64,000 bases of DNA from a bacterium (GCA_044869275.1 JBIOXB010000075.1:13120-77119), one strand, 5' to 3'; counted from the first letter of the stretch, positions 32,715 through 43,822 are shown. Program-made: numbers and translations. Notes: generated by a model from the letters alone, not told the origin.

Positions 32715-35426
32715 TCATTCAATGGCTGGTTGTGTTCCCAGCCAAACTTTTCGCCAGCGCTGGCTCGACCAGAGTTTCTCTCGCACGGCATTTTCCGCTT
32801 CCAATAATTGGCGGTAGCGCGAATCGGCGCGTTTGGCTAATTCCATGGGAATGCCGTCTTCGATCACTTGGCCGTTTTCAATAACCGACACGCGGTCGAA
32901 TTCCAAAGTCTCGCCGACGTCGTGCGTGATGCAAAGCAGCGTCGCGTTCTTCCACAACTCGCGGCAACGCGCCAGCAGCGTGCGGCGTTGCTGGCGATCC
33001 AACCCGCGAAACGGTTCGTCGAGTATCGCCAGCCGCGCGTTGCCGCGCAGCATAGCGCGACCGAGGCGCACGCGCTGTCCTTCGCCGCCGGAAACCAAAC
33101 GGCCGCCTTCGCCGAGCGGCGTTTGCAAACCCTCCGGCAATTTTTGCAGAACGCCAATAAGCTCCGCTTGCTCGATAACCATTCCGAGCGCAGCCGCATG
33201 TTGATTTTCGTTGCCGTAGTGCAAATTGTCAAACAGCGAGCGATTCCACAAATGCACCGCCGGATCGGCCCACGCGGTTTCCTGGCGCAATTGATCGAGC
33301 CGCTCACCGGCAAGAGCTTCGCCATCCACTAAAACTTTTCCGGCCGCCGGGCGATGCCATCCTAAGAAAACTCCGACTAAACTCGATTTGCCCGCGCCGG
33401 AAGGTCCGACAATCGCCGTATGGCTTCCAGAGGTAATCGTGAAATCGATGTCCTGCAGAATCGTGTGGCCTGCCACGCGCACGCTCACTTGCTGCAGCGC
33501 GAGCGCCACGCCATGAGTTTTTTCCTTGTGTATTTGTGTTGATGGAGAAGTCGAGGCGGTCTCACCTTCCTCAGGCGCGCCCAGCGGTTCGAGCAGGCGC
33601 AGGATGATATTGCGATGCGCCGGATATTGTTGCATGACCTGCGCCACGCCTTGGCCGAGCACCGGCAGATTCAGCGTCCAATACGCCATCAGCAGCACCC
33701 AATTGACTTCCGCGGTTCTGGCGAGATAGCTGAACAAAATCCAGGCGGCGAGGGCATATCCCGAGATCGCCAAAAGGCCATCGAGCATGGCGAGCATGCG
33801 ATGGCGGCTCAGGCTGGAGCGCGCCCATTCCACCAACAGACCCTCATGCTCGGTCCGCACCGCGCGTTCCGCACCATGGCTGCGAATGGGCACGAGCCCG
33901 AGCAATGCATCGAGATAAAAACGTCCGAGCGCGCCGCTGTGGGTTTGCAGGCGCGAATCTTTTTCCATCAACAACGGCAGCGTCATTAAGGGAAGCGCAA
34001 TCACCAAAGCCGCGGCAAGAAAGGCAAGCGGCGCGCTGGGCGGATCGATCCAAGCGATGCCGGCGGCCGTCAGCAGCAGCTCGAAGATCGCTCGCAAAAG
34101 GTTCGCGTAGATGTTAGGCATCTCGCTCAAGTGGTACACCACATGACTGCGTTGCACCATATCCGAAATGGGGCGGCTTTGAAAATAGCGATCCGCAAGC
34201 CGCGGGATTTTTTTCAAGAATGCCATGCGCAGCCGCAATTCCAGGCGACGGCCAAAGCGCCAATAATTGGAGATATTGGGAACTTGCAGCAGCAATAGGG
34301 CGAGCGCAAAAATGAGCAAAATCACCATCGCACCGGCGCGTTGGCTGGGCAGGCTAAGCACCTCCCAAACTTCCATAAGGCTGCGCAGAACCAACGCTTC
34401 GAGAATGAATGCCACTGCCGTGGCAAACAGCGCCGCGATCATGAGCGCCGGCGTTTTCCAGCCATCTTGAAAAATGAGACGAAAGAGCTCGCGATCCGGA
34501 CGGAGGGGCGCTTCTTCGAGCGCGGCGGCCAGCTCCGGCGAAAGCGTTTTATTCTGCGCCGGCGTCGCAGCGTCGCCTGGAGCGGCATCCACACCATTGT
34601 GAGGCAATGGCCGTAAGGCTCGCACCAAAACAGCGCCGCGCAAGAGCAGTTGTTCCGCCGACGCGCCTGCGGAAGGCGAGGGTCGAACCGACCAGTAGGC
34701 GTTGGGAATGGCGCGATTTTCTGAGGAAGACTCCTGTACTGATTTCTCGAAAAAACGTTCGAGCACATGCCCGGCTTGCGGTCCGGCTTTGATGCCATCC
34801 GAACGAATCAGAGCATCGACCATGCGGGTCGCGGCATCCAGCGCAGCGAGCGAATGCCAGCTTGTGTCGACAAGTGCAGCGTCGATTATACCGCGAGACC
34901 GTCTTGGTGCGAGGCCCAAGTTGGCCAAGCGCCGTTGCAGCGGATAGATGAATTCCTCCGAGTCCGCCCATTCTCGCCACCCCGCCGCTGAGACCGCCAT
35001 CGTATGCACATAAAGCTCATTTAGAAAAAAATGCGTTGAAGGCCAGCGCCGCCCGGTGCCGGGATCCATGATTTGGAGCACACCCCCGTGCCGGCGCCAG
35101 GCAACGACAAAGTGCGTGGCGCCATCGGCTTGGCGCACCACGACGATGGCTGGCAAGGCGTTCGCCTCGGAAAGCAGCAGATGATCGACGGGAATCATGA
35201 TTTGATCCGCGTCCAAGCCGAGCTGGCGCGCGATCTCTTCCATGGTGTCAATCGAAGTGCCGTCGACGTCGGTTTGGCAGGCTTCGCGCAGACGACCATA
35301 ACTGACGCGAATGCCGAATCCCTCGAGCAAACATTTGAGCGCCGCCGGCCCGCAATCCATCGCCGAAGTCTGCACCACTTCGGGGGCGAAATAACGACGC
35401 GAGATTTTTGAAGCACTGACTTTCAT
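32715..35426 (-). CDS. Peptidase C39-containing ABC transporter (PCAT)
   Basis: QTSAMDCGPAAL (catalytic Cys), THFVV (His), MDPG (Asp); TMD; GPSGAGKS, VSGGE, ILDEP, ITHD. Confidence 0.92.
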   Translation of the reverse strand: MKVSASKISRRYFAPEVVQTSAMDCGPAALKCLLEGFGIRVSYGRLREACQTDVDGTSIDTMEEIARQLGLDADQIMIPVDHLLLSEANALPAIVVVRQADGATHFVVAWRRHGGVLQIMDPGTGRRWPSTHFFLNELYVHTMAVSAAGWREWADSEEFIYPLQRRLANLGLAPRRSRGIIDAALVDTSWHSLAALDAATRMVDALIRSDGIKAGPQAGHVLERFFEKSVQESSSENRAIPNAYWSVRPSPSAGASAEQLLLRGAVLVRALRPLPHNGVDAAPGDAATPAQNKTLSPELAAALEEAPLRPDRELFRLIFQDGWKTPALMIAALFATAVAFILEALVLRSLMEVWEVLSLPSQRAGAMVILLIFALALLLLQVPNISNYWRFGRRLELRLRMAFLKKIPRLADRYFQSRPISDMVQRSHVVYHLSEMPNIYANLLRAIFELLLTAAGIAWIDPPSAPLAFLAAALVIALPLMTLPLLMEKDSRLQTHSGALGRFYLDALLGLVPIRSHGAERAVRTEHEGLLVEWARSSLSRHRMLAMLDGLLAISGYALAAWILFSYLARTAEVNWVLLMAYWTLNLPVLGQGVAQVMQQYPAHRNIILRLLEPLGAPEEGETASTSPSTQIHKEKTHGVALALQQVSVRVAGHTILQDIDFTITSGSHTAIVGPSGAGKSSLVGVFLGWHRPAAGKVLVDGEALAGERLDQLRQETAWADPAVHLWNRSLFDNLHYGNENQHAAALGMVIEQAELIGVLQKLPEGLQTPLGEGGRLVSGGEGQRVRLGRAMLRGNARLAILDEPFRGLDRQQRRTLLARCRELWKNATLLCITHDVGETLEFDRVSVIENGQVIEDGIPMELAKRADSRYRQLLEAENAVREKLWSSQRWRKVWLGTQPAIE

Positions 35427-35465: not shown

Positions 35466-36638
35466 CTAAAACTGAACCGTCTTTTTCGATGACTTCACCA
35501 ACTCGCTCACCGTTTGCAAAACCAGCGAAGCCGGCGAAACACGATCCACTTCGATTTCGATGGCACCGGTAAGGCCGTGTTGCAAGAGGAATGTTGGATT
35601 TTGCTGCGGCTGCACGCTGCACTCGACGCGGAATTTGCCGTCACGCGGCTCGCTGGCGACGTTGCCGACTTGCGCCGCGAGAATGCCGAATTGCGTCCAT
35701 GGGTAAGCATCCAAACGCATGCTGGCCGGTTGTCCAGAGCGAATGCGTCCCAAGGCCCGACCGACGGCAAAATTCGCCACGATGCGAACCTCGCCCGAGG
35801 GCACGATCGTCGCCAGCTTGTCGCCGGGTTTTACGACTCCGCCAACCTGCAGCTCTGTGGTCTCACCGATGCGGCCGCTGATCGGTGCGTGAATAAATTG
35901 CTCTTGAATCTCGAGCTGCTCGCGCGCAATCGTTTTTTCCGTGGTGGCAATTTGACCTTCGAACAGAGCCACTTCACGATTCAAGCGCTCGAGCTTGGCT
36001 TCCTGATCGCTCGTTTTGGTGCCCTGCTCGTTTTGCATTCGGCTGGCCGTCAATCGCAGCGCTTCGGCGGCCGCACGCGATCGGGTAGCATTGGCCTCAG
36101 CGCGGCGAAATTCCACTTCCGAAATCAGCCCGCGTTTAAAAAGCTCCCGCATGCGCTCCGCTTCCTTTTCGGCCAATTGGGCGGAAGTCTCGGCTTCGAG
36201 CTGGCGCGCACTGGCCTCTTTCACAGCTGTCGGCGCAGCTTGGAGCTCCTGCTCATACGCTCGCGCCTGCGCGCTGACTTCATTGCGCAACGCCGCGAGC
36301 TGATTCTGCAATCCGGCCAGATGAGATCTTTGCTCTTCCAAATGCAGCTTGTGCTCTTCGGTATCCAATTCCACGAGAACGTCGCCGGCAGTTACTTCCG
36401 CGCCGAGCTGCAAGCGCGTTTGCACAACACGGCCGCCGAACTGCACGGCCACCGGATGCACCGCGCTTTCCACTTCCAACCGCGCGGTCTCACTGGTTTC
36501 ATATAACGCAACGCGCGCCAGCAACAGCCACAGTGTCCAGACGATTAACAGCGCCAGCACCGTCAAAACCGCGAGATTGGCGCGGCGAAAACCATCCAAT
36601 TCAAGTGAACGAAGTGACCGAGAGAAAGATATAGACAT
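35466..36638 (-). CDS. HlyD family secretion/membrane fusion protein
   Basis: N-terminal TM, GGRVV...G..V..GDVL, long coiled coil, IHAPISG, YPWTQFG. Confidence 0.9.
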   Translation of the reverse strand: MSISFSRSLRSLELDGFRRANLAVLTVLALLIVWTLWLLLARVALYETSETARLEVESAVHPVAVQFGGRVVQTRLQLGAEVTAGDVLVELDTEEHKLHLEEQRSHLAGLQNQLAALRNEVSAQARAYEQELQAAPTAVKEASARQLEAETSAQLAEKEAERMRELFKRGLISEVEFRRAEANATRSRAAAEALRLTASRMQNEQGTKTSDQEAKLERLNREVALFEGQIATTEKTIAREQLEIQEQFIHAPISGRIGETTELQVGGVVKPGDKLATIVPSGEVRIVANFAVGRALGRIRSGQPASMRLDAYPWTQFGILAAQVGNVASEPRDGKFRVECSVQPQQNPTFLLQHGLTGAIEIEVDRVSPASLVLQTVSELVKSSKKTVQF

Positions 36639-36767: not shown

Positions 36768-38147
36768 TTACATGAACTCCAATTCCGGATTGCCAAGCAG
36801 CGTGATACTCTCCGTATTTCTTATGATCTGCGTATCTCCCTCGAGCACAGCAACCACGGCGGATTGAATAATTTCAAAGCATCTTTCTTTTGGTAAACCG
36901 ATGATCGCAAGAGGGAAAGACCCGATAATGACCAGTAGGGGAGTGCGAACATAGTGTTTCGCGGCATTCCGCGCTTCGAACACCAGGGCGTCACCGAAGG
37001 CTTCCTCCAAGCCGGGCCGAACGACGCCTTCGAACCACGCGCAAGAATTGCATCCCCAGCGTTTGTAAACGACGATATGCGCTTTGCCTTTTGGAACCTC
37101 AATTCCCTCCTGAATCACTGACCGCACCAATTTGTGCGCTCCGTAGCTCAAGCGCCGGTTCGTGATCTGGCACGCTATCCGCACCGCTGCCCAGGTCAAA
37201 CCGAAAGCGATTCCCGCCGTGCCCGCTAAGCTGGCGAGCTGCGCGTTGCTCGATTTTGTTGCCGTCAGAGAGGCCGCCATAGCGACCATTGCGGAGAATC
37301 CCACCATTAAACAGGGCATGCAAAGAATACGTTGCTTAAGGAGACGGCTCAACAAGAAAGCATGCGCACCCATCGCAACAAAGATGCCCACGAGGATGGC
37401 AAAATGGCCGAGGGTATGCAACGTGCCGGCCCATAGCACGGAGTACAAACCGGTTCCCAGCCATGCCAAAGGCAATCCACCCAACAAGCTGGTGGCGCGG
37501 TCACAGGAAACGCAGTTTTTGGCCAACAGCGCTGACCATAGGGAGCCGCCAAAACAAACCGCCAAAGCCGTCAATGCCAACCATGATGGTTTCTGTCTCG
37601 CCGATAACATCCACGGTAAATGGTCAAAAGTTGCCATGAGCGTTGCCACAGCCACGATTCCCACACTCAGACCAAAGACCAGCCGGGGGCCGGCGCGTCG
37701 CAGGTCTCTTAACTCCTTCAGCGCCTGCTGCTCAGCATCGTGATCGCGGCTCAGCACCACCACCTCTCCGGTCCAGCGTTGGCAGAATTGTTCGCGGGAA
37801 AGAGTGACCAATCCAACGGCGGGATCAGCGATGAATGCTTCGCGATCGTCAACCTGATGCAGAACGACGAAACATTCGCGCGCGTTTTCCTTGAAGACCA
37901 TGATTGCAGGTAGAGCCACTGATGGGAGCTCCTCGTAAGGGCCTTCCATGGCCACTGCACTGAGACCGTACTGGCGGGCTGTCCCCAGCAGCAGCGCTAG
38001 CTCTTCGATTTTATCGGCATTGCCGAGAAGACGCATCTCTTGAAGGCCGATTGGACTGTGAAGATGCTGTGCGACAATGGCCAGGGCCGCCGCGCCATTT
38101 TCTTGGGGCCGCCCTTGCCGAACGCAAAGAAGATTTTGCTCAATCAA
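36768..38147 (-). CDS. Fusion: inactive C39-like domain + VKOR-like membrane domain + thioredoxin-like domain
   Basis: RQGRPQENGAAAL (Cys->Asn), CFVVL (His lost), IADP, F.QRWTG; VKOR-like CVSC and CMPC pairs in the TM region; C-terminal WGCNSC; TTG start after AAGGAG. Confidence 0.8.
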   Translation of the reverse strand: MIEQNLLCVRQGRPQENGAAALAIVAQHLHSPIGLQEMRLLGNADKIEELALLLGTARQYGLSAVAMEGPYEELPSVALPAIMVFKENARECFVVLHQVDDREAFIADPAVGLVTLSREQFCQRWTGEVVVLSRDHDAEQQALKELRDLRRAGPRLVFGLSVGIVAVATLMATFDHLPWMLSARQKPSWLALTALAVCFGGSLWSALLAKNCVSCDRATSLLGGLPLAWLGTGLYSVLWAGTLHTLGHFAILVGIFVAMGAHAFLLSRLLKQRILCMPCLMVGFSAMVAMAASLTATKSSNAQLASLAGTAGIAFGLTWAAVRIACQITNRRLSYGAHKLVRSVIQEGIEVPKGKAHIVVYKRWGCNSCAWFEGVVRPGLEEAFGDALVFEARNAAKHYVRTPLLVIIGSFPLAIIGLPKERCFEIIQSAVVAVLEGDTQIIRNTESITLLGNPELEFM

Positions 38148-38236: not shown

Positions 38237-38293
38237 TTAGCGCCAGCAACCTCGGGGGCACGGACCGGCCTTGATGTTGGTTTTTACCTTCAT
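38237..38293 (-). CDS. Micro-precursor peptide 3, MKVKTNIKAG-PCPRGCWR (18 aa)
   Basis: Manual translation; AAGGAG RBS 7 nt upstream; leader shared with two neighbouring ORFs; below the ORF-track size cutoff. Confidence 0.85.
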   Translation of the reverse strand: MKVKTNIKAGPCPRGCWR

Positions 38294-38375
38294 GACGTTC
38301 TCCTTATGAGGGGTTGGGTTAACAGCTTTGTGGTTTGTTTTGTTTTACTTCTATTCTTTCGACTTCCACTTGTTT

Positions 38376-38402
38376 GATGCAACTCGTATTGAAATTCCAT
38401 AA
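38376..38402 (-). promoter_or_regulatory. Putative ECF-sigma promoter TTATGGAA-N14-GCATC for peptide 3
   Basis: Bipartite motif with identical spacing about 80 nt upstream of each precursor ATG. Confidence 0.7.
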
Positions 38403-38429
38403 GACCTTTTTCGTCGTTTGGGAGATCGC

Positions 38430-38458
38430 GACGAGTCCCGTTGACTTCGAGACTCGTC
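38430..38458 (-). other. Stem-loop 3' of precursor peptide 2
   Basis: gacgagtc (38430-38437) / gactcgtc (38451-38458). Confidence 0.65.
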
Positions 38459-38470
38459 AGGAGCTGGCGC

Positions 38471-38527
38471 CTAGTTCATCGCCAGACCTTTGGGCTTGCC
38501 GGCTTTCACGTTCGTTTTTACCTTCAT
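38471..38527 (-). CDS. Micro-precursor peptide 2, MKVKTNVKAG-KPKGLAMN (18 aa)
   Basis: Manual translation; AAGGAG RBS 7 nt upstream; shared leader. Confidence 0.85.
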   Translation of the reverse strand: MKVKTNVKAGKPKGLAMN

Positions 38528-38604
38528 GGCTTTCTCCTTCGAGAGTTTGGGGTTAATTGCTTCTGGTTTGGTTTCAGTTTTTTGTTTTCAACTTCCACAT
38601 ACTT

Positions 38605-38631
38605 GATGCAGCTTGTATCGAAATTCCATAA
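38605..38631 (-). promoter_or_regulatory. Putative ECF-sigma promoter TTATGGAA-N14-GCATC for peptide 2
   Basis: Exact motif copy with the same 14-nt spacer. Confidence 0.7.
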
Positions 38632-38649
38632 AATTTTCTTGTCTGTTTT

Positions 38650-38694
38650 TGAGAGCGCGCGGAGCGACCTTTTTGACCTCCAGCCGCGCTCTCA
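38650..38694 (-). other. Stem-loop 3' of precursor peptide 1
   Basis: tgagagcgcg (38650-38659) / cgcgctctca (38685-38694). Confidence 0.65.
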
Positions 38695-38712
38695 GCAGCG
38701 CCGGTGTCTTGC

Positions 38713-38775
38713 TTAGCGAATGTTCTGCGAAATGCACTTGTGGCAGCCGGCTTTCACGTTCGTTTTCACCTTCAT
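38713..38775 (-). CDS. Micro-precursor peptide 1, MKVKTNVKAG-CHKCISQNIR (20 aa)
   Basis: Manual translation; GAGGTG RBS; shared leader. Confidence 0.85.
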   Translation of the reverse strand: MKVKTNVKAGCHKCISQNIR

Positions 38776-38859: not shown

Positions 38860-38886
38860 GATGCACCCACCACAAAAATTCCACAA
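38860..38886 (-). promoter_or_regulatory. Putative ECF-sigma promoter TTGTGGAA-N14-GCATC for peptide 1
   Basis: One-mismatch copy of the motif, same spacing. Confidence 0.68.
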
Positions 38887-38910: not shown

Positions 38911-38941
38911 TTGACAAAACAGGCAAATTGTGCAATATTAT
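38911..38941 (+). promoter_or_regulatory. Putative sigma70 promoter for the ECF/anti-sigma/CHAT operon
   Basis: TTGACA (38911-38916), 17 nt, then AATATT preceded by TG. Confidence 0.5.
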
Positions 38942-39115: not shown

Positions 39116-39706
39116 TTGCCCCTTATAATTGATCGAAAAGCTGAAGTCGCACTTTCAGATATAGAATTGATTGCGCGGTACAGGGAATCCCGAGATGTGG
39201 CTTACCCGGGCGTGCTCTTCCAGCGTTATGCCCACTTGGTTCTGGGTATTTGCTTGAAGTATCTCAAGAACGAAGAGGATAGTAAAGACGCGGCCATGGA
39301 ACTGTTCGAGAATCTCACCGAAATGCTGGTGAAACACGAGATCACCAATTTCAAAAGCTGGTTGCATACCACCACGAAAAATCATTGCCTGATGAAGCTG
39401 CGTAAGCCGGAAGCCAAAGCCATCAGACGAAATTTGGAAGGCGTGGATGAAAGTTTATTTATGGAAAATCCCGAGTCCGAGCATCTTATAGTAGAAGAAA
39501 TGCGTGATTTACAAATCCGCCATTTGGGAACGGCCTTACCACGGTTGAACGAAGAACAGAGGGTTTGCATCGAATTGTTTTATTTGCAGGGAAAAAGCTA
39601 TCAAGAGGTGGCGGAAACCACCGGATATAGTTTGAATCAAGTCAAGAGCCATATCCAAAACGGAAAGAGAAACTTGAAGAACTTTTTGACGAATGTGAAG
39701 GAATAA
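39116..39706 (+). CDS. ECF sigma-70 family factor
   Basis: Region 2 (LFQRY...DAAMELF...FKSWL.TTTKNHCL) and region 4 (LNEEQRVCIELFY...SYQEVAE.TG...VKSHIQNGKRNL); TTG start after AGGAG. Confidence 0.93.
   Translation: MPLIIDRKAEVALSDIELIARYRESRDVAYPGVLFQRYAHLVLGICLKYLKNEEDSKDAAMELFENLTEMLVKHEITNFKSWLHTTTKNHCLMKLRKPEAKAIRRNLEGVDESLFMENPESEHLIVEEMRDLQIRHLGTALPRLNEEQRVCIELFYLQGKSYQEVAETTGYSLNQVKSHIQNGKRNLKNFLTNVKE
39459..39485 (+). promoter_or_regulatory. Intragenic copy of the TTATGGAA-N14-GCATC motif inside the ECF sigma gene
   Basis: ttatggaa-aatcccgagtccga-gcatc, encoding FMENPESEHL; oriented toward the anti-sigma gene. Confidence 0.6.
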
Positions 39707-39710
39707 AGCG

Positions 39711-40595
39711 ATGCTGGTTGCATTTGAGAATGTGAACGCCGCGGACGAAAGAACGACTCCGTGTTTGAGTTTCGAACAAATGGTGGGTTATGAGGAAAAA
39801 ACCTTATCCCCGGCGCAATATGCTGCAGTTGATGAGCACTTGACGCAGTGTGAGCTTTGCAGCGAGGCCATGGAAGGCTTTGCCGCTTTTCCGGATAAAG
39901 CCCGGCGGTCGTTCTTGGTGCAAGAGCTGCACGAGGAGATTCAGAGAAGATCCCTGCCGGAAGTTGCACCGGAATCTGAGCCTACATGGTCCGAACGACT
40001 CGCAGGAGTGGTGCGATCGGCAAAAAGCTGGCTTGCCGGAACGATGAAAAATTCCCACTCGATTTTGATCACACCGCGATACGGTGTGAAGCTGGCTTAT
40101 GCTATGGCAACGACTTTCTTGGTCGGCGTAGTTTCGGTAATTTATCTGAATCGCGAGACGCCGGGCGAGAAGTTGTTTGCTTCATACTTTCAGCCTTATC
40201 CCAACCTCGCCTCCTCCGTGCGCGGCGAGCAAGACGCAAGCAAATTGCAGGAGGCTTTGCAATCCTATGATGCGCAAGATTTCGAGGCCGCGCTGCAGGA
40301 GCTGCGAGACATTCTCGCCTCCCAGCCCAACAACGTCATGGCGAATTTTTATGCCGGTATTTCTTATTTGAATCTCAAAGAAACTGAACGAGCGATTGCC
40401 AGTCTGCAAAAAGTGCTTGCGCTCAACGATGCGAAGTTTTCAGCACCGGCGCTTTGGTATCTGGCGCTCGCTTACCTGCAGCAAGATCAATTGGTGCAAG
40501 CACGTGCCACTCTGGAAGGCATTACCGCCAATCAACACCTGTACCAAGCGCAAGCCATAAAGCTGCTGGAGCAACTTCGTTCCGGTGGCCAGTGA
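39711..40595 (+). CDS. Zinc-finger (HxxxCxxC) anti-sigma factor with TM helix and C-terminal TPRs
   Basis: DEHLTQCELC, TM AYAMATTFLVGVVSVIYL, TPR motifs FYAGISYL and WYLALAYL; 4 nt after the sigma stop. Confidence 0.85.
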   Translation: MLVAFENVNAADERTTPCLSFEQMVGYEEKTLSPAQYAAVDEHLTQCELCSEAMEGFAAFPDKARRSFLVQELHEEIQRRSLPEVAPESEPTWSERLAGVVRSAKSWLAGTMKNSHSILITPRYGVKLAYAMATTFLVGVVSVIYLNRETPGEKLFASYFQPYPNLASSVRGEQDASKLQEALQSYDAQDFEAALQELRDILASQPNNVMANFYAGISYLNLKETERAIASLQKVLALNDAKFSAPALWYLALAYLQQDQLVQARATLEGITANQHLYQAQAIKLLEQLRSGGQ

Positions 40596-40675
40596 GTGGT
40601 TAACAATCGTCCGTTTCGTACACGCTAAACATTGAAAACGGGCTACTTCAGACACACCCGCCGCGGAGGTCTACC

Positions 40676-43600
40676 ATGAATCCCAGCCGAGTTATATTGG
40701 CGGGCTTTGCGGTTCTCCTTGCCTGTTGCGCCCAAAAAGAAGAGGCCGCGCGAGAAAAGGCTGCGGCTTATTCTTCACCCTCCGACCACGATCTCACCCG
40801 AGCGGAAAACTTTGCCAAGGAAGCCAAATACGATAGCGCGATAACGGCTTTAGAAAGGGCGCGTGCCGGAGATGAAGCCGCAGGAAATTGGGAAGGCGTG
40901 GTGCAGGCGGACAATAAGATCGGCGAATATCTGACGGAAAAAGGTTTGTATGATCAGGCACTCGAGCTGCTGAAGAAGACTTTGACGCTGGGCCAGAGCA
41001 AAATTGGTGAGCAGCACCGTTTGGTCGCGGAAACATATCATAACCTGGGTTACACCAACTGGCGACAGGGCAAACTCGACGAGGCACTGGCGCATCACAA
41101 GAGAGCCCTGGCGCTTCGCTTGGCGGTTCTCGGCGAGCGCCATGCCGAAGTCGGACAAAGTTATCATTTTCTTGGTGAGGTTTATCAGTCGCAAGGGGAT
41201 CTTGATCGCGCCATCGATTTTCACGAATTGGGTCTGTCCATCCGCAAGGCGGTGCTGGGAGAGCGGGATGTCGCCGTGGCCGAAAGTTACAATGCGACGG
41301 CCGGCGATTACTGGTTCAAAGGCGATTATGACAAAGCGCTCGACTATTGCCATAAAGCTTTGGCGATTTGGCGCAACACCGTCGGCGAGCAGCATCCTAA
41401 GACCGCGAATTCCTACGGTAACCTCGCCATTCTTTATGCCACCAAGGGCGATCATGTGCAGGCGCTGGAATTTTTCCATAAAGAGCTGGCCATTCGTCTA
41501 GCGATCTTTGGCGAGCAGCATCCTCGCGTGGCCAACACTTATAGCAACATCGGACTCACCCACGAAATGCTCGGCGAGTATGACCAGGCCCTGGTTTATA
41601 CCGAAAAAGCCCTCGTGGGCATTGCGGCGCGCATGGGAGAGAAGCATCCTTTGCTCGCGAACACTTATAATAATAAGGGAAAGATTCTTCATCACCTCCG
41701 CCATGACGATCAAGCGATCGCGGCGCATCACAAGGCTTTGTCGATTCTGTTGCCAACCGTCGGCGAAAAACATCCTTTTGTGGCTCAGGCTTATAACCAT
41801 ATCGGTGAAGCGCATATCGGCAGGCGGGAGTATGCGCCAGCGCTCGCCTCGTTCAACAAAGCAGCGTCGGTCATGCAAATATTGTATGGCAAGCACCATC
41901 CCGAGCTGGCGCAGGTTTACAATAATCTAGGCAAGACGCACCTCAAGCTGCGCCAGTATGATTTCGCGCTGCAGGATTTTCAGCAATCGATTAGCGCGAA
42001 TATTCCGACTTTGCTCGATGACGATATCTATGGCGAGCCGCCATTGCTCAATGTGCTCTCGGAGAATGATTTATTGCAGTCGCTGAGCGGCAAGGCGCAG
42101 GCTTTCGCCGAGCGCCACGACCATCAGTCGCGAGATCCGCGCGATCTCAAAGCCGCTGTCGGGGCCTATCAGCACGCCTCGCGCTTGATCGACAAAATGC
42201 GCAGCAGCTATAAAGCCGAAGGCTCCAAATTGTTTTTGTCGCGGAACGCCCGGGATATTTTTGACAAGGCGATTCAAAGCACGAGGCGCCTACACGATCC
42301 CGCCGATCGTGAAACCGCGTTCTTATTCGCTGAAAAGAGTAAGGCGGGCATTATTCTGGAGGCGCTTACCGAGGCCGACGCCAAGGAGTATGCCGGCATC
42401 CACGATAGCTTGCTGGCGAAAGAGCATCAACTGCGCATCGATCTGGCATTTTATGACCGCAAACTGAGCGAAGCGCAGATGAATCCCCAAAGCGCGGATA
42501 GCGCCAAAACCGCGCAATGGCGTGACGAGGAGTTTCAGCTCAAGCAAGATTATGAGGCCCTGCTGGAACGTTTCGAGCGCGAACATCCGCATTACTACAA
42601 TCTCAAATATCGCCTCAACACCGTCACCGTGGCGCAGGTGAGAAGTGAGATTTTGAGCGAGAATACTGCGTTGGTGGAATATTTCACCGGCAATGATTCG
42701 CTGTTTATATTTACGATCACTGTGAATGCTTTTGACTTAACTGCCACGGCCAAAGACACTGGGTTTGAAACGGATATTCAGGCGTTGCGCCAGGGCATCA
42801 TTGAGCAGGACTTCGGCAAATACACGCGGTCCGCGCATCGGCTTTATCAAACCTTGCTCGCGCCAGTGGCGGGCAAGCTCGCTGCAACCAATCTGATCAT
42901 CATTCCCGACGCGGCGCTCAGCACAGTTCCGTTTGAAGCGTTGTTGGCGCATCCCGTCGCTGCCGAAGGCGGCTTGCAAGATTTTGCCAGCCTTCCGTTT
43001 GTTTTGAACGATCACTCCTTGAGCTATGCCTATTCGGCAACGCTATTGCAGCAGACGATCAAAAGGAAACAGGCGACGACGAGCCGCGACTACCTGGCCT
43101 TTGCGCCGGTCTTCGCGGAGGGTCTGCCCGTGGGCACGCGCGGCGGGGATCTTTTCAAAGAAAATTTTGCCGCCGGCTCGTCCCAGGTTGCTGCCACAGC
43201 TGCTGTTTCAGCTACACGCATGCGCGGCTATTTGCCTGCCTCCAAAATGGAAGTCACGAATGTGTTTGGCGAGTTTAACGCGCGCTATAATTTTTTTGAG
43301 CGTTGGTTTGGCACGAAGTCGCAGATTTATTTGGAGCGCGAAGCAAAAGAAGAGAGACTCAAGTCGCGCGATTTAAGCGCCTATCGTTTCCTCCACTTTG
43401 CCACACATGGTCTCGTCAACGAGAAAAACCCCAAGCTCTCCGGCTTGGTTTTTGCTCGGGAAGACTCGAGTTCAAAAGAAGACGGCGTTTTGCATTTGAG
43501 CGAGATATATAATTTGAATCTGAACGCCGATCTCGTGGTATTGAGCGCGTGCGAGACCGGGCTCGGACAAGTGGTCAAAGGGGAGGGTATCATCGGTCTG

Positions 43601-43822
43601 ACCCGAGGCTTTCTCTATGCGGGTGCATCCAATCTGCTCGTCTCATTGTGGCAGGTGAGTGATGCAACCACGGCGGATTTGATGGTGGATTTTTATGACA
43701 AGATGCTCGAGGGCATGAGCAAGCCCGAAGCTTTGCGCGAAGCCAAATTGCAAATGATTCGCCGCCATCCCGAATATGCCAAGCCGTATTACTGGGCGCC
43801 GTTTGTTTTGGTGGGAAGATGA
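40676..43822 (+). CDS. Lipoprotein with TPR array and CHAT (caspase-like) protease domain
   Basis: Signal/lipobox VLLAC; many GE.HP.VA.TY.N.G TPRs; IIPD.AL..VPFEAL, HFATHG (His), VLSACETG (Cys), SLWQV, YWAPF. Confidence 0.92.
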   Translation: MNPSRVILAGFAVLLACCAQKEEAAREKAAAYSSPSDHDLTRAENFAKEAKYDSAITALERARAGDEAAGNWEGVVQADNKIGEYLTEKGLYDQALELLKKTLTLGQSKIGEQHRLVAETYHNLGYTNWRQGKLDEALAHHKRALALRLAVLGERHAEVGQSYHFLGEVYQSQGDLDRAIDFHELGLSIRKAVLGERDVAVAESYNATAGDYWFKGDYDKALDYCHKALAIWRNTVGEQHPKTANSYGNLAILYATKGDHVQALEFFHKELAIRLAIFGEQHPRVANTYSNIGLTHEMLGEYDQALVYTEKALVGIAARMGEKHPLLANTYNNKGKILHHLRHDDQAIAAHHKALSILLPTVGEKHPFVAQAYNHIGEAHIGRREYAPALASFNKAASVMQILYGKHHPELAQVYNNLGKTHLKLRQYDFALQDFQQSISANIPTLLDDDIYGEPPLLNVLSENDLLQSLSGKAQAFAERHDHQSRDPRDLKAAVGAYQHASRLIDKMRSSYKAEGSKLFLSRNARDIFDKAIQSTRRLHDPADRETAFLFAEKSKAGIILEALTEADAKEYAGIHDSLLAKEHQLRIDLAFYDRKLSEAQMNPQSADSAKTAQWRDEEFQLKQDYEALLERFEREHPHYYNLKYRLNTVTVAQVRSEILSENTALVEYFTGNDSLFIFTITVNAFDLTATAKDTGFETDIQALRQGIIEQDFGKYTRSAHRLYQTLLAPVAGKLAATNLIIIPDAALSTVPFEALLAHPVAAEGGLQDFASLPFVLNDHSLSYAYSATLLQQTIKRKQATTSRDYLAFAPVFAEGLPVGTRGGDLFKENFAAGSSQVAATAAVSATRMRGYLPASKMEVTNVFGEFNARYNFFERWFGTKSQIYLEREAKEERLKSRDLSAYRFLHFATHGLVNEKNPKLSGLVFAREDSSSKEDGVLHLSEIYNLNLNADLVVLSACETGLGQVVKGEGIIGLTRGFLYAGASNLLVSLWQVSDATTADLMVDFYDKMLEGMSKPEALREAKLQMIRRHPEYAKPYYWAPFVLVGR

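Follow-up and report, generated by a model that had tools for sequence, protein, structure and literature searches.

A 64,000-nucleotide (nt) stretch of bacterial DNA (GCA_044869275.1, JBIOXB010000075.1:13120-77119), here referred to as the window and numbered from its first letter, carries a sigma factor gene of the extracytoplasmic function (ECF) type at 39116-39706. Within the coding region of this gene, at 39459-39485 on the plus strand, lies a copy of the promoter-like motif that precedes three neighboring small peptide genes. We consider this copy to be probably a working promoter that is read by the sigma factor of its own gene and that would create a loop of negative feedback only. An earlier reading of the sequence alone had interpreted this DNA as dual coding, and the comparison with homologous genes supports that interpretation: codon choice among the homologues shows that the internal site is under selection at the nucleotide level. 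The features on which the argument depends are as follows.

39116-39706, plus strand: ECF (group 4) sigma-70 family sigma factor, 196 amino acids (aa), TTG start (Pfam, TIGR02937, translation)
39459-39485, plus strand: internal ECF-type promoter-like site, TTATGGAA-N14-GCATC (sequence, rarity, silent-site constraint in homologues, co-variation)
39711-40595, plus strand: anti-sigma factor, 294 codons (N-terminal zf-HC2 motif, hydrophobic segment LAYAMATTFLVGVVSVIYL, C-terminal TPR)
38860-38886, minus strand: ECF-type promoter-like site before precursor gene 1, TTGTGGAA-N14-GCATC, one mismatch, ATG 84 nt downstream
38605-38631, minus strand: ECF-type promoter-like site before precursor gene 2, exact, ATG 77 nt downstream
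38376-38402, minus strand: ECF-type promoter-like site before precursor gene 3, exact, ATG 82 nt downstream

A promoter-like site in the linker of the sigma factor

The sigma protein matched TIGR02937 with 83.5 bits (cut-off, 42.9), and Pfam placed Sigma70_r2 (PF04542) at residues 34-97 and Sigma70_r4_2 (PF08281) at residues 137-187, with a linker between them. As expected of an ECF sigma factor, only regions 2 and 4 were found, with no Pfam match to region 1 or 3, and the open reading frame (ORF) of the cognate anti-sigma factor adjoins the sigma gene, beginning 5 nt past its stop codon. The sequence TTATGGAAAATCCCGAGTCCGAGCATC at 39459-39485 (+), which follows the pattern TTATGGAA-N14-GCATC, was present both by inspection and in a pattern scan of the window, exactly where the sequence-only reading had placed it. 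It overlaps codons 115-124 of the sigma gene, which translate as F-M-E-N-P-E-S-E-H-L and, as that reading had also stated, lie in the linker between the region 2 and region 4 domains. The anti-sigma ATG (39711) stands 226 nt past the final base of the site, close to the approximately 225 nt given earlier, and from the position of the motif a transcription start is predicted near 39491-39493 (approximately 39492).

The exact pattern TTATGGAA-N14-GCATC occurs three times in the 64-kb window, at 38376-38402 (−), 38605-38631 (−), and 39459-39485 (+). In 100 dinucleotide-preserving shuffles of the window, the mean count was 0.01 and no shuffle reached at least three copies; the chance expectation of about 0.002 hits quoted previously under a uniform base model is arithmetically right and of the same order of magnitude. 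The 12-base form TATGGAA-N14-GCATC has three exact copies across the 6.67-Mb assembly, all at the sigma locus, and when up to one mismatch was allowed it was found at 35 places, versus 8 for a reversed control pattern. The match of the internal site to the precursor motif had been described as 13 of 13 positions; this holds for two of the precursor sites, while the third (38860-38886) departs by one mismatch (TTGTGGAA), a G variant that is common among homologues.

Two further readings of the site were discarded. The sequence gtagaag that follows the internal site had been likened to gtggaag/gtgaaag after the precursor sites. The echo is indeed present, at an offset of 5 versus 6, 6, and 7, but we take it to be a coincidence because the internal sites of the closest homologues have not preserved it; a GTGGAAGTCGAAA-like sequence is retained in the precursor promoters of three related loci (L041, L129, and L131). 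A sigma-54 reading of TGG...GC was ruled out by eye, as GG and GC lie 16 bases apart and the usual distance in sigma-54 sites is 10 bases.

Constraint on silent sites in homologous genes

Homologous loci were gathered from related genomes (6 loci), species-representative genomes (80 loci), and metagenome contigs (80 loci). The species-representative loci came nearly all from Bacteroidota (Chitinophaga, Rufibacter, Pontibacter, Cyclobacteriaceae, and many metagenome-assembled genomes of Bacteroidales). Together with the window, the set comprised 167 sigma genes, or 153 once identical coding sequences had been removed; protein identity to the window's sigma factor was 63-66% for the closest homologues and 43-55% for most. 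The genes used for the analysis of silent sites were chosen on amino acids alone, by the presence of [M/V]-E-x5-H at the aligned place of the linker, which was found in 45 of the 153 genes. As a control for relatedness, one gene was taken per cluster below 70% protein identity, giving 26 clusters. In a recoding simulation, the peptides were held fixed and synonymous codons were drawn from family usage in 2000 runs. Of the statistics reported here, only the simulation on cluster representatives respects phylogeny.

The spacing from Glu to His was five codons in all 45 genes, and codon choice within the motif was strongly skewed. GAA was the Glu codon in 44 of 45 genes, as against 67% of the 864 Glu codons in the remainder of these genes, and CAT was the His codon in 43 of 45, as against 61% of the remaining 225 His codons. 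Where Val replaced Met, the codon was GTG in 14 of 15 cases, compared with 32% of 407 Val codons elsewhere in these genes. The constraint extended to codons whose amino acid is free to vary: T ended the codon before ATG/GTG in 44 of 45 genes, across ten amino acids (27% third-base T elsewhere), and G ended the codon before CAT in 30 of 45, across thirteen amino acids (24% elsewhere). C began the codon after His in 44 of 45. Simple binomial figures for these codon choices, which ignore relatedness, ranged from 2 × 10−9 to 2 × 10−24.

When the site was considered as a whole, the full 12/12 form was present in 29 of the 45 genes, compared with 1.76 expected from synonymous recoding (maximum of 7 in 2000 runs), so that none of the 2000 simulations reached the observed total. 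When the window was excluded, 16 of the 25 representatives below 70% identity carried the full site, versus 1.06 expected. Across the 191 columns of the alignment of 26 representatives, columns 115, 116, 117, and 123 had the most conserved third bases among degenerate codons (0.92-0.96; mean of 0.51 and standard deviation of 0.15), and the neighboring linker columns held 10-13 different residues each. In the rest of the gene, two representatives with the same residue agreed in its silent third base in only 46% of comparisons, and therefore inheritance alone does not explain the conservation in the linker. One homologue, L061, has lost the whole pattern at once (TTG GTA GAG ... GCC CAC GCC). 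A full internal site is seen, for example, in L084 of a Pontibacter strain (CCT ATG GAA ... ATG CAT CTT). These results bear directly on the sequence-only reading, which had looked to homologues for synonymous-site constraint as the mark of a promoter and for free codon choice with variable linker length as the mark against it: the codon bias (GAA in 44/45, CAT in 43/45, GTG in 14/15) and the excess of full sites agree with the former, and the spacing fixed in 45 of 45 genes is the opposite of the latter.

Outside the search pattern, G[CT]ATC was also seen at the aligned linker place in L066, L067, L082, L091, and L135, which have Met-Asp in place of Met-Glu, and in L059, which has Val-Asp. 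As deduced from residues and not from bases, the Met-Asp rows imply a −35 half TATGGAT, the form printed for the ECF255 group discussed below. These six linkers may hold further internal sites.

Co-variation of a linker residue with the −10 element

In 11 genes, L070 among them, the linker His is replaced by Tyr, always encoded by TAT, so that the internal site reads GTATC. GTATC is also found in the intergenic promoter of the same locus in all of them but one, L062 (10 of 11). Among the 25 loci with both internal and intergenic sites, the −10 variant agreed in 24 (14 C/C, 10 T/T, 1 T/C, and 0 C/T). In addition, the pentamer lacks its G in both the internal and the intergenic sites of a clade formed by L048, L049, L144, and L154. 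That a residue of the linker should change in step with a base of a promoter at another point of the locus has no easy explanation other than that the linker DNA itself is recognized as a promoter. The suggestion that any conservation of ME.....HL in related linkers might be a promoter constraint fits these data, given that adjacent columns hold 10-13 residues and that His changes to Tyr (TAT) where the promoter reads GTATC. The GTATC/Tyr loci represent few events, namely, one clade of nine loci and L057 elsewhere on the tree.

Internal and upstream placement of the motif

The motif TGGAA-N13/14-GCATC behaves as a family promoter: in homologous loci it precedes the gene divergent to the sigma gene by 18-91 nt. 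Seven divergent proteins were scanned; the gene encodes a CarboxypepD_reg, vWF_A, VWA, and YfbK_C (which we take to be the former DUF3520) protein in L051, L053, L070, and L084, a VIT-VWA-TonB_C protein in L062 and L082, and a TonB_C protein in L198. In 24 loci, the motif stands a short way upstream of the sigma gene and on its strand. It is at −48 to −54 from the called start in 19 of them, the classic place for an ECF autoregulatory promoter, and a distance of about 52 nt is frequent among homologues without the internal site. Most of the loci with such an upstream site belong to a Chitinophaga clade, the linker of which does not contain M-E...H.

To compare the two placements, the motif was written as [AG]TGGAA-N13/14-G[CT]ATC. 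It was present at the aligned linker position in 40 of 153 genes, only one of which (L057) also had an upstream same-strand site, compared with 25 of the 113 genes without an internal site (Fisher p = 0.003, ignoring relatedness). On a FastTree phylogeny of the 153 proteins, built with the linker residues masked, the internal-site label changed 14 times, and 3 of these changes were forced by well-supported branches. These data are suggestive of internal and upstream sites replacing each other.

The genes presumably served by the internal site

In the 38 loci with a callable downstream ORF, the next ORF starts a median of 214.5 nt after the internal site (range, 201-373) and mostly overlaps or abuts the sigma stop codon. 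We scanned 46 of the 161 downstream ORFs with Pfam, 27 of which were the anti-sigma-position proteins of group-A loci. Of these 27 proteins, 16 contained TonB_C and/or CarboxypepD_reg, 7 contained TPR-type repeats, and 3 had no Pfam match; zf-HC2 was detected at an E value of ≤0.001 in 7. Wherever Pfam named an anti-sigma factor encoded downstream of the internal site, it was of the zf-HC2 type.

The anti-sigma factor of the window fits this picture. Its zf-HC2 match scored 18.6 bits, below the cut-off of 22.2, and TPR_16 and TPR_19 were at or above their cut-offs; a zf-HC2-type protein stands at the anti-sigma position in homologous loci too. Its ATG is preceded by the Shine-Dalgarno-like sequence GAAGGAA. 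Downstream and in the same direction follows one more gene:

40676-43822, plus strand: TPR-CHAT protein, 1048 aa, lipoprotein-like N terminus MNPSRVILAGFAVLLACC (Pfam CHAT, 231.6 bits; TPR_12, 268 bits)

A CHAT gene follows the anti-sigma gene only in the window's own clade (L130 and L137), and therefore we regard it as local cargo outside the conserved arrangement.

A proposed negative-feedback-only loop and its alternatives

We propose that the sigma gene would be transcribed from an upstream housekeeping-type promoter, for which one site is a candidate by its match to the consensus:

38911-38939, plus strand: promoter-like site of the sigma-70 type, TTGACA-17-AATATT, second hexamer preceded by TG, 10/12 consensus matches

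This site lies 177 nt upstream of the sigma start. Once freed from the anti-sigma factor, the sigma factor would transcribe the three divergent small-peptide genes and would also start inside its own gene near 39492. The RNA from this start would include only the 3′ third of the sigma gene, which is of no use by itself, and then the anti-sigma gene in full, joined in the window's clade by the TPR-CHAT gene. Because an internal start of this kind yields anti-sigma factor but no intact sigma factor, the loop would be negative only: activity would raise the inhibitor and not the activator, and the response would thus be limited and shut off. The sigma factor would not be expected to transcribe a full copy of itself, because no ECF motif was found on the plus strand upstream of its gene when up to two mismatches were allowed, and because of the sigma-70-type match at 38911-38939. 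The linker would be a natural place for such a site, because the sequence there is otherwise free.

Several observations weigh against this interpretation. The putative housekeeping promoter is a consensus match of a type expected by chance 1.8 times in the 2.7-kb stretch in which 2 were found, and the motif is assigned to the window's sigma factor by co-location only. The leader to the anti-sigma gene, of about 225 nt, is long compared with the 18-91 nt at intergenic sites. Six homologues (L042, L043, L044, L160, L189, and L199) keep the −35 half (T-ATG-GAA) without the −10 half; therefore, F, M, and E may also matter to the protein, or these halves may be remnants. Genes without the full internal site still use GAA over GAG (26 versus 8), which amounts to weak relaxation after loss, and the G of GCATC is retained in only 30 of 45 genes. 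The exclusivity of internal and upstream sites is suggestive and not proven, because the tree-aware test had only 3 independent pairs on supported branches and no power. Similarly, the C/T state of the −10 element needs only 3 changes on the tree for the internal site and 2 for the intergenic one, and the tree-aware test of its co-variation, with 1 independent pair on supported branches, had no power.

The long leader would also suit a site that binds the sigma holoenzyme but acts mainly as a roadblock or sink against read-through, and thereby in negative autoregulation, or as a titrating decoy. Any holoenzyme-bound site would show the same nucleotide conservation and co-variation. However, the site is always directed at the adjacent anti-sigma gene, within the family it appears to replace an upstream autoregulatory site, and the known sites inside sigma genes are productive promoters; we consider this explanation improbable and, since binding and initiation are compatible, closer to an added effect than to a true alternative. 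Less probable still is another function of the same strand, such as an RNA element or an internal translation start at codon 116 that would produce a region-4-only protein. In its favor, codon 116 is ATG (30 genes) or GTG (14 genes) in 44 of 45 cases, and both are start codons. Such a function leaves unexplained the fixed CAT seven codons on, with its preceding G and following C, the invariant 14-base spacing, the identity with the intergenic motif, and the change of His to Tyr in step with GCATC and GTATC in the intergenic promoters. A region-4-only product starting at the in-frame Met129 was ruled out, as Met129 is not conserved in the alignment.

The remaining explanation is that M-E and H are conserved for the sake of the protein and that, combined with a preference for GAA and CAT, they resemble a promoter by chance. 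These two codons are indeed the preferred ones in the family (67% and 61%), and the six genes that retain F-M-E without the −10 half fit a role in the protein. Selection on the protein would nevertheless not fix third bases across different residues (T over ten amino acids and G over thirteen), nor would it choose GTG in 14 of the 15 cases of Val; in the simulation with unchanged peptides, the full site was expected in 1.76 genes and found in 29, and the linker around M-E and H is otherwise unconserved. A variant of this explanation, in which the linker His or Tyr co-varies with the −10 base through contact with the promoter, is countered by the fact that −10 elements are read by sigma region 2 and not by the linker. 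We therefore regard conservation at the protein level as the least probable of the alternatives.

At the level of the family, we lean, with less assurance, towards a broader view. The promoter in the linker would be ancient dual-coding DNA throughout ECF255 and its relatives (Bacteroidota type), in which three to four residues of the linker are set by the regulon promoter and change together with the −10 element (His/CAT with GCATC and Tyr/TAT with GTATC). The internal site would have replaced an upstream autoregulatory promoter and thereby turned a positive-plus-negative loop into a negative-only one.

Small peptide and export genes at the locus

Three genes for peptides of 18-20 aa diverge from the sigma gene, followed on the same (minus) strand by genes for export:

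38713-38775, minus strand: small precursor gene 1, MKVKTNVKAGCHKCISQNIR
38471-38527, minus strand: small precursor gene 2, MKVKTNVKAGKPKGLAMN
38237-38293, minus strand: small precursor gene 3, MKVKTNIKAGPCPRGCWR
36768-38147, minus strand: C39-domain membrane protein, presumed peptide processing/export (Pfam, NCBIfam)
35466-36638, minus strand: HlyD-type adaptor, presumed peptide export (Pfam, NCBIfam)
32715-35426, minus strand: C39-ABC exporter, presumed peptide processing/export (Pfam, NCBIfam)

Homologues of the small peptides were found in three related loci (L041, L129, and L131). Taken together with those of the window (38237-38775), the peptides are 16-20 aa long and share the leader MKVKTN[VI]K[AS]G, after which come short and variable tails that are often rich in Cys or in Trp/Arg. 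Each peptide gene has its own ECF-type promoter and a Shine-Dalgarno sequence, and the genes adjoin those for C39-peptidase, ABC, and HlyD export proteins. A scan against NCBIfam gave no match for the small peptides. Possible roles, under the control of the sigma factor, are those of secreted signals or of small peptides akin to bacteriocins.

In the 459-aa protein encoded at 36768-38147, a C39 peptidase domain forms the N terminus, and there is a long membrane part that contains Cys; at what we take to be the position of the catalytic Cys-containing motif of C39 peptidases, aligned by eye, the sequence reads ENGAAALA. The sequence TGGAA-N14-GCATC is also present inside the HlyD-type gene, at 36455-36478 (−), where it has no T[AG]T prefix and is kept at the same place in L041 and L129. 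It could reflect conservation of the protein (…LEVESAVH…) or be a second coding-region site. Clear Shine-Dalgarno sequences stand before the peptide genes and the ORF at 39711 (GAAGGAGAAAGCC-ATG, TAAGGAGAACGTC-ATG, and GAAGGAATAAAGCG-ATG). Bacteroidota rarely use such sequences, and the host of the window may lie outside this phylum, the source of most of the homologous loci.

Comparison with known systems

The circuit, a sigma-dependent anti-sigma promoter inside the sigma gene, is already known from Escherichia coli and Corynebacterium glutamicum; in both systems, as in the window, a match to the sigma factor's own consensus lies in the coding region of the sigma gene, on the coding strand, and upstream of the anti-sigma gene. 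In E. coli, the third promoter of rseA, P3, lies inside the rpoE coding region and has sigma-24-type motifs, and P2 lies upstream of rpoE (PMC3861889). Like the window site, P3 places the sigma factor's own consensus inside an ECF sigma gene, where it serves the anti-sigma gene that follows. With the sigma-E-type P2 upstream of rpoE, however, both sigma and anti-sigma factors rise in E. coli, in contrast to the window, in which the sigma strand has no ECF motif upstream of the gene; the two sigma factors also belong to different families. The passage on rseA P3 in that review makes no mention of placement in the linker, conservation at the codon level, or co-variation. In C. glutamicum, the coding region of sigH contains the SigH-dependent promoter PrshA, in addition to the promoters upstream of this gene from which sigH-rshA is transcribed; a rapid end to the response is the role that the authors proposed for PrshA (Busche et al. 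2012, PMC3489674). The logic of an extra sigma-dependent promoter for the anti-sigma gene is thus shared with the window locus. Experimental mapping put the starts of PrshA close to the 3′ end of sigH, at 62 and 66 nt ahead of rshA, whereas the site in the window is deduced from sequence, lies about 225 nt before the anti-sigma gene, and falls in the linker. Furthermore, sigH and rshA encode an actinobacterial, redox-sensing cytoplasmic pair, whereas loci of the window type belong to an unrelated ECF clade with membrane anti-sigma factors.

The closest described group is ECF255 of the Bacteroidetes, the predicted promoter of which is TATGGAT (−35) and GCATCT (−10) according to the supplement of Casas-Pastor et al. 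2021 (PMC7826278). As given there, its context comprises an anti-sigma factor with TonB_C and CarboxypepD_reg and a vWF/DUF3520 protein at position −1. The sites of the window fit this promoter, reading TATGGAA...GCATC followed by T, A, A, and T, with A/T as the seventh base against the printed T. In four homologues (L051, L053, L070, and L084), the ECF255-type context is combined with an internal site. The window locus itself differs from the ECF255 description: its anti-sigma factor contains TPR and neither TonB_C nor CarboxypepD_reg, three genes for peptides of 18-20 aa take the place of the vWF protein at −1, and a TPR-CHAT gene is present. The ECF255 passages of the supplement contain nothing on a promoter copy inside the sigma gene.

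A relation of the CHAT gene to a known system is also suggested. In DdvS/DdvA of Myxococcus xanthus, the anti-sigma factor that controls the ECF sigma factor binds zinc, spans the membrane, and is linked to a periplasmic TPR-CHAT part (PMC11506125). In DdvA, TPR-CHAT is fused to the anti-sigma factor, whereas in the window it is encoded by a separate, lipoprotein-like ORF (40676-43822). With an anti-sigma factor composed of zf-HC2, a membrane segment, and TPR, and with TPR-CHAT standing apart, the region 39711-43822 looks like a split version of DdvA.

Unlike the circuit, the deeply conserved dual coding in the sigma linker appears to be new. In the accessible parts of the literature outside subscription journals, we found no report of a site in the linker, of clade-wide conservation of silent sites, of exchange with an upstream promoter, or of His/Tyr co-variation.

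Implications

Here a regulatory site would determine residues in the protein that recognizes it, which makes the linker site a concrete case open to testing; a natural pair of variants, His with GCATC and Tyr with GTATC, accompanies it. Two wirings coexist in one ECF family, a promoter before the gene, with which sigma and anti-sigma factors would rise together, and a promoter inside the gene, with which only the anti-sigma factor would rise. According to circuit theory, such a difference in wiring changes the dynamics of the response. Predictions of ECF target promoters commonly rely on the DNA in front of the sigma gene and would miss internal sites, which gives a reason to scan the coding sequence too. 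If the broader view of the family is true, some target promoters may lie concealed in the sigma gene itself in ECF groups that are at present listed without an autoregulatory motif. In the construction of synthetic switches, such sites could be lost or gained unnoticed when ECF genes are silently recoded. The finding is relevant to ECF signaling, to overlapping codes, and to the design of synthetic sigma switches.

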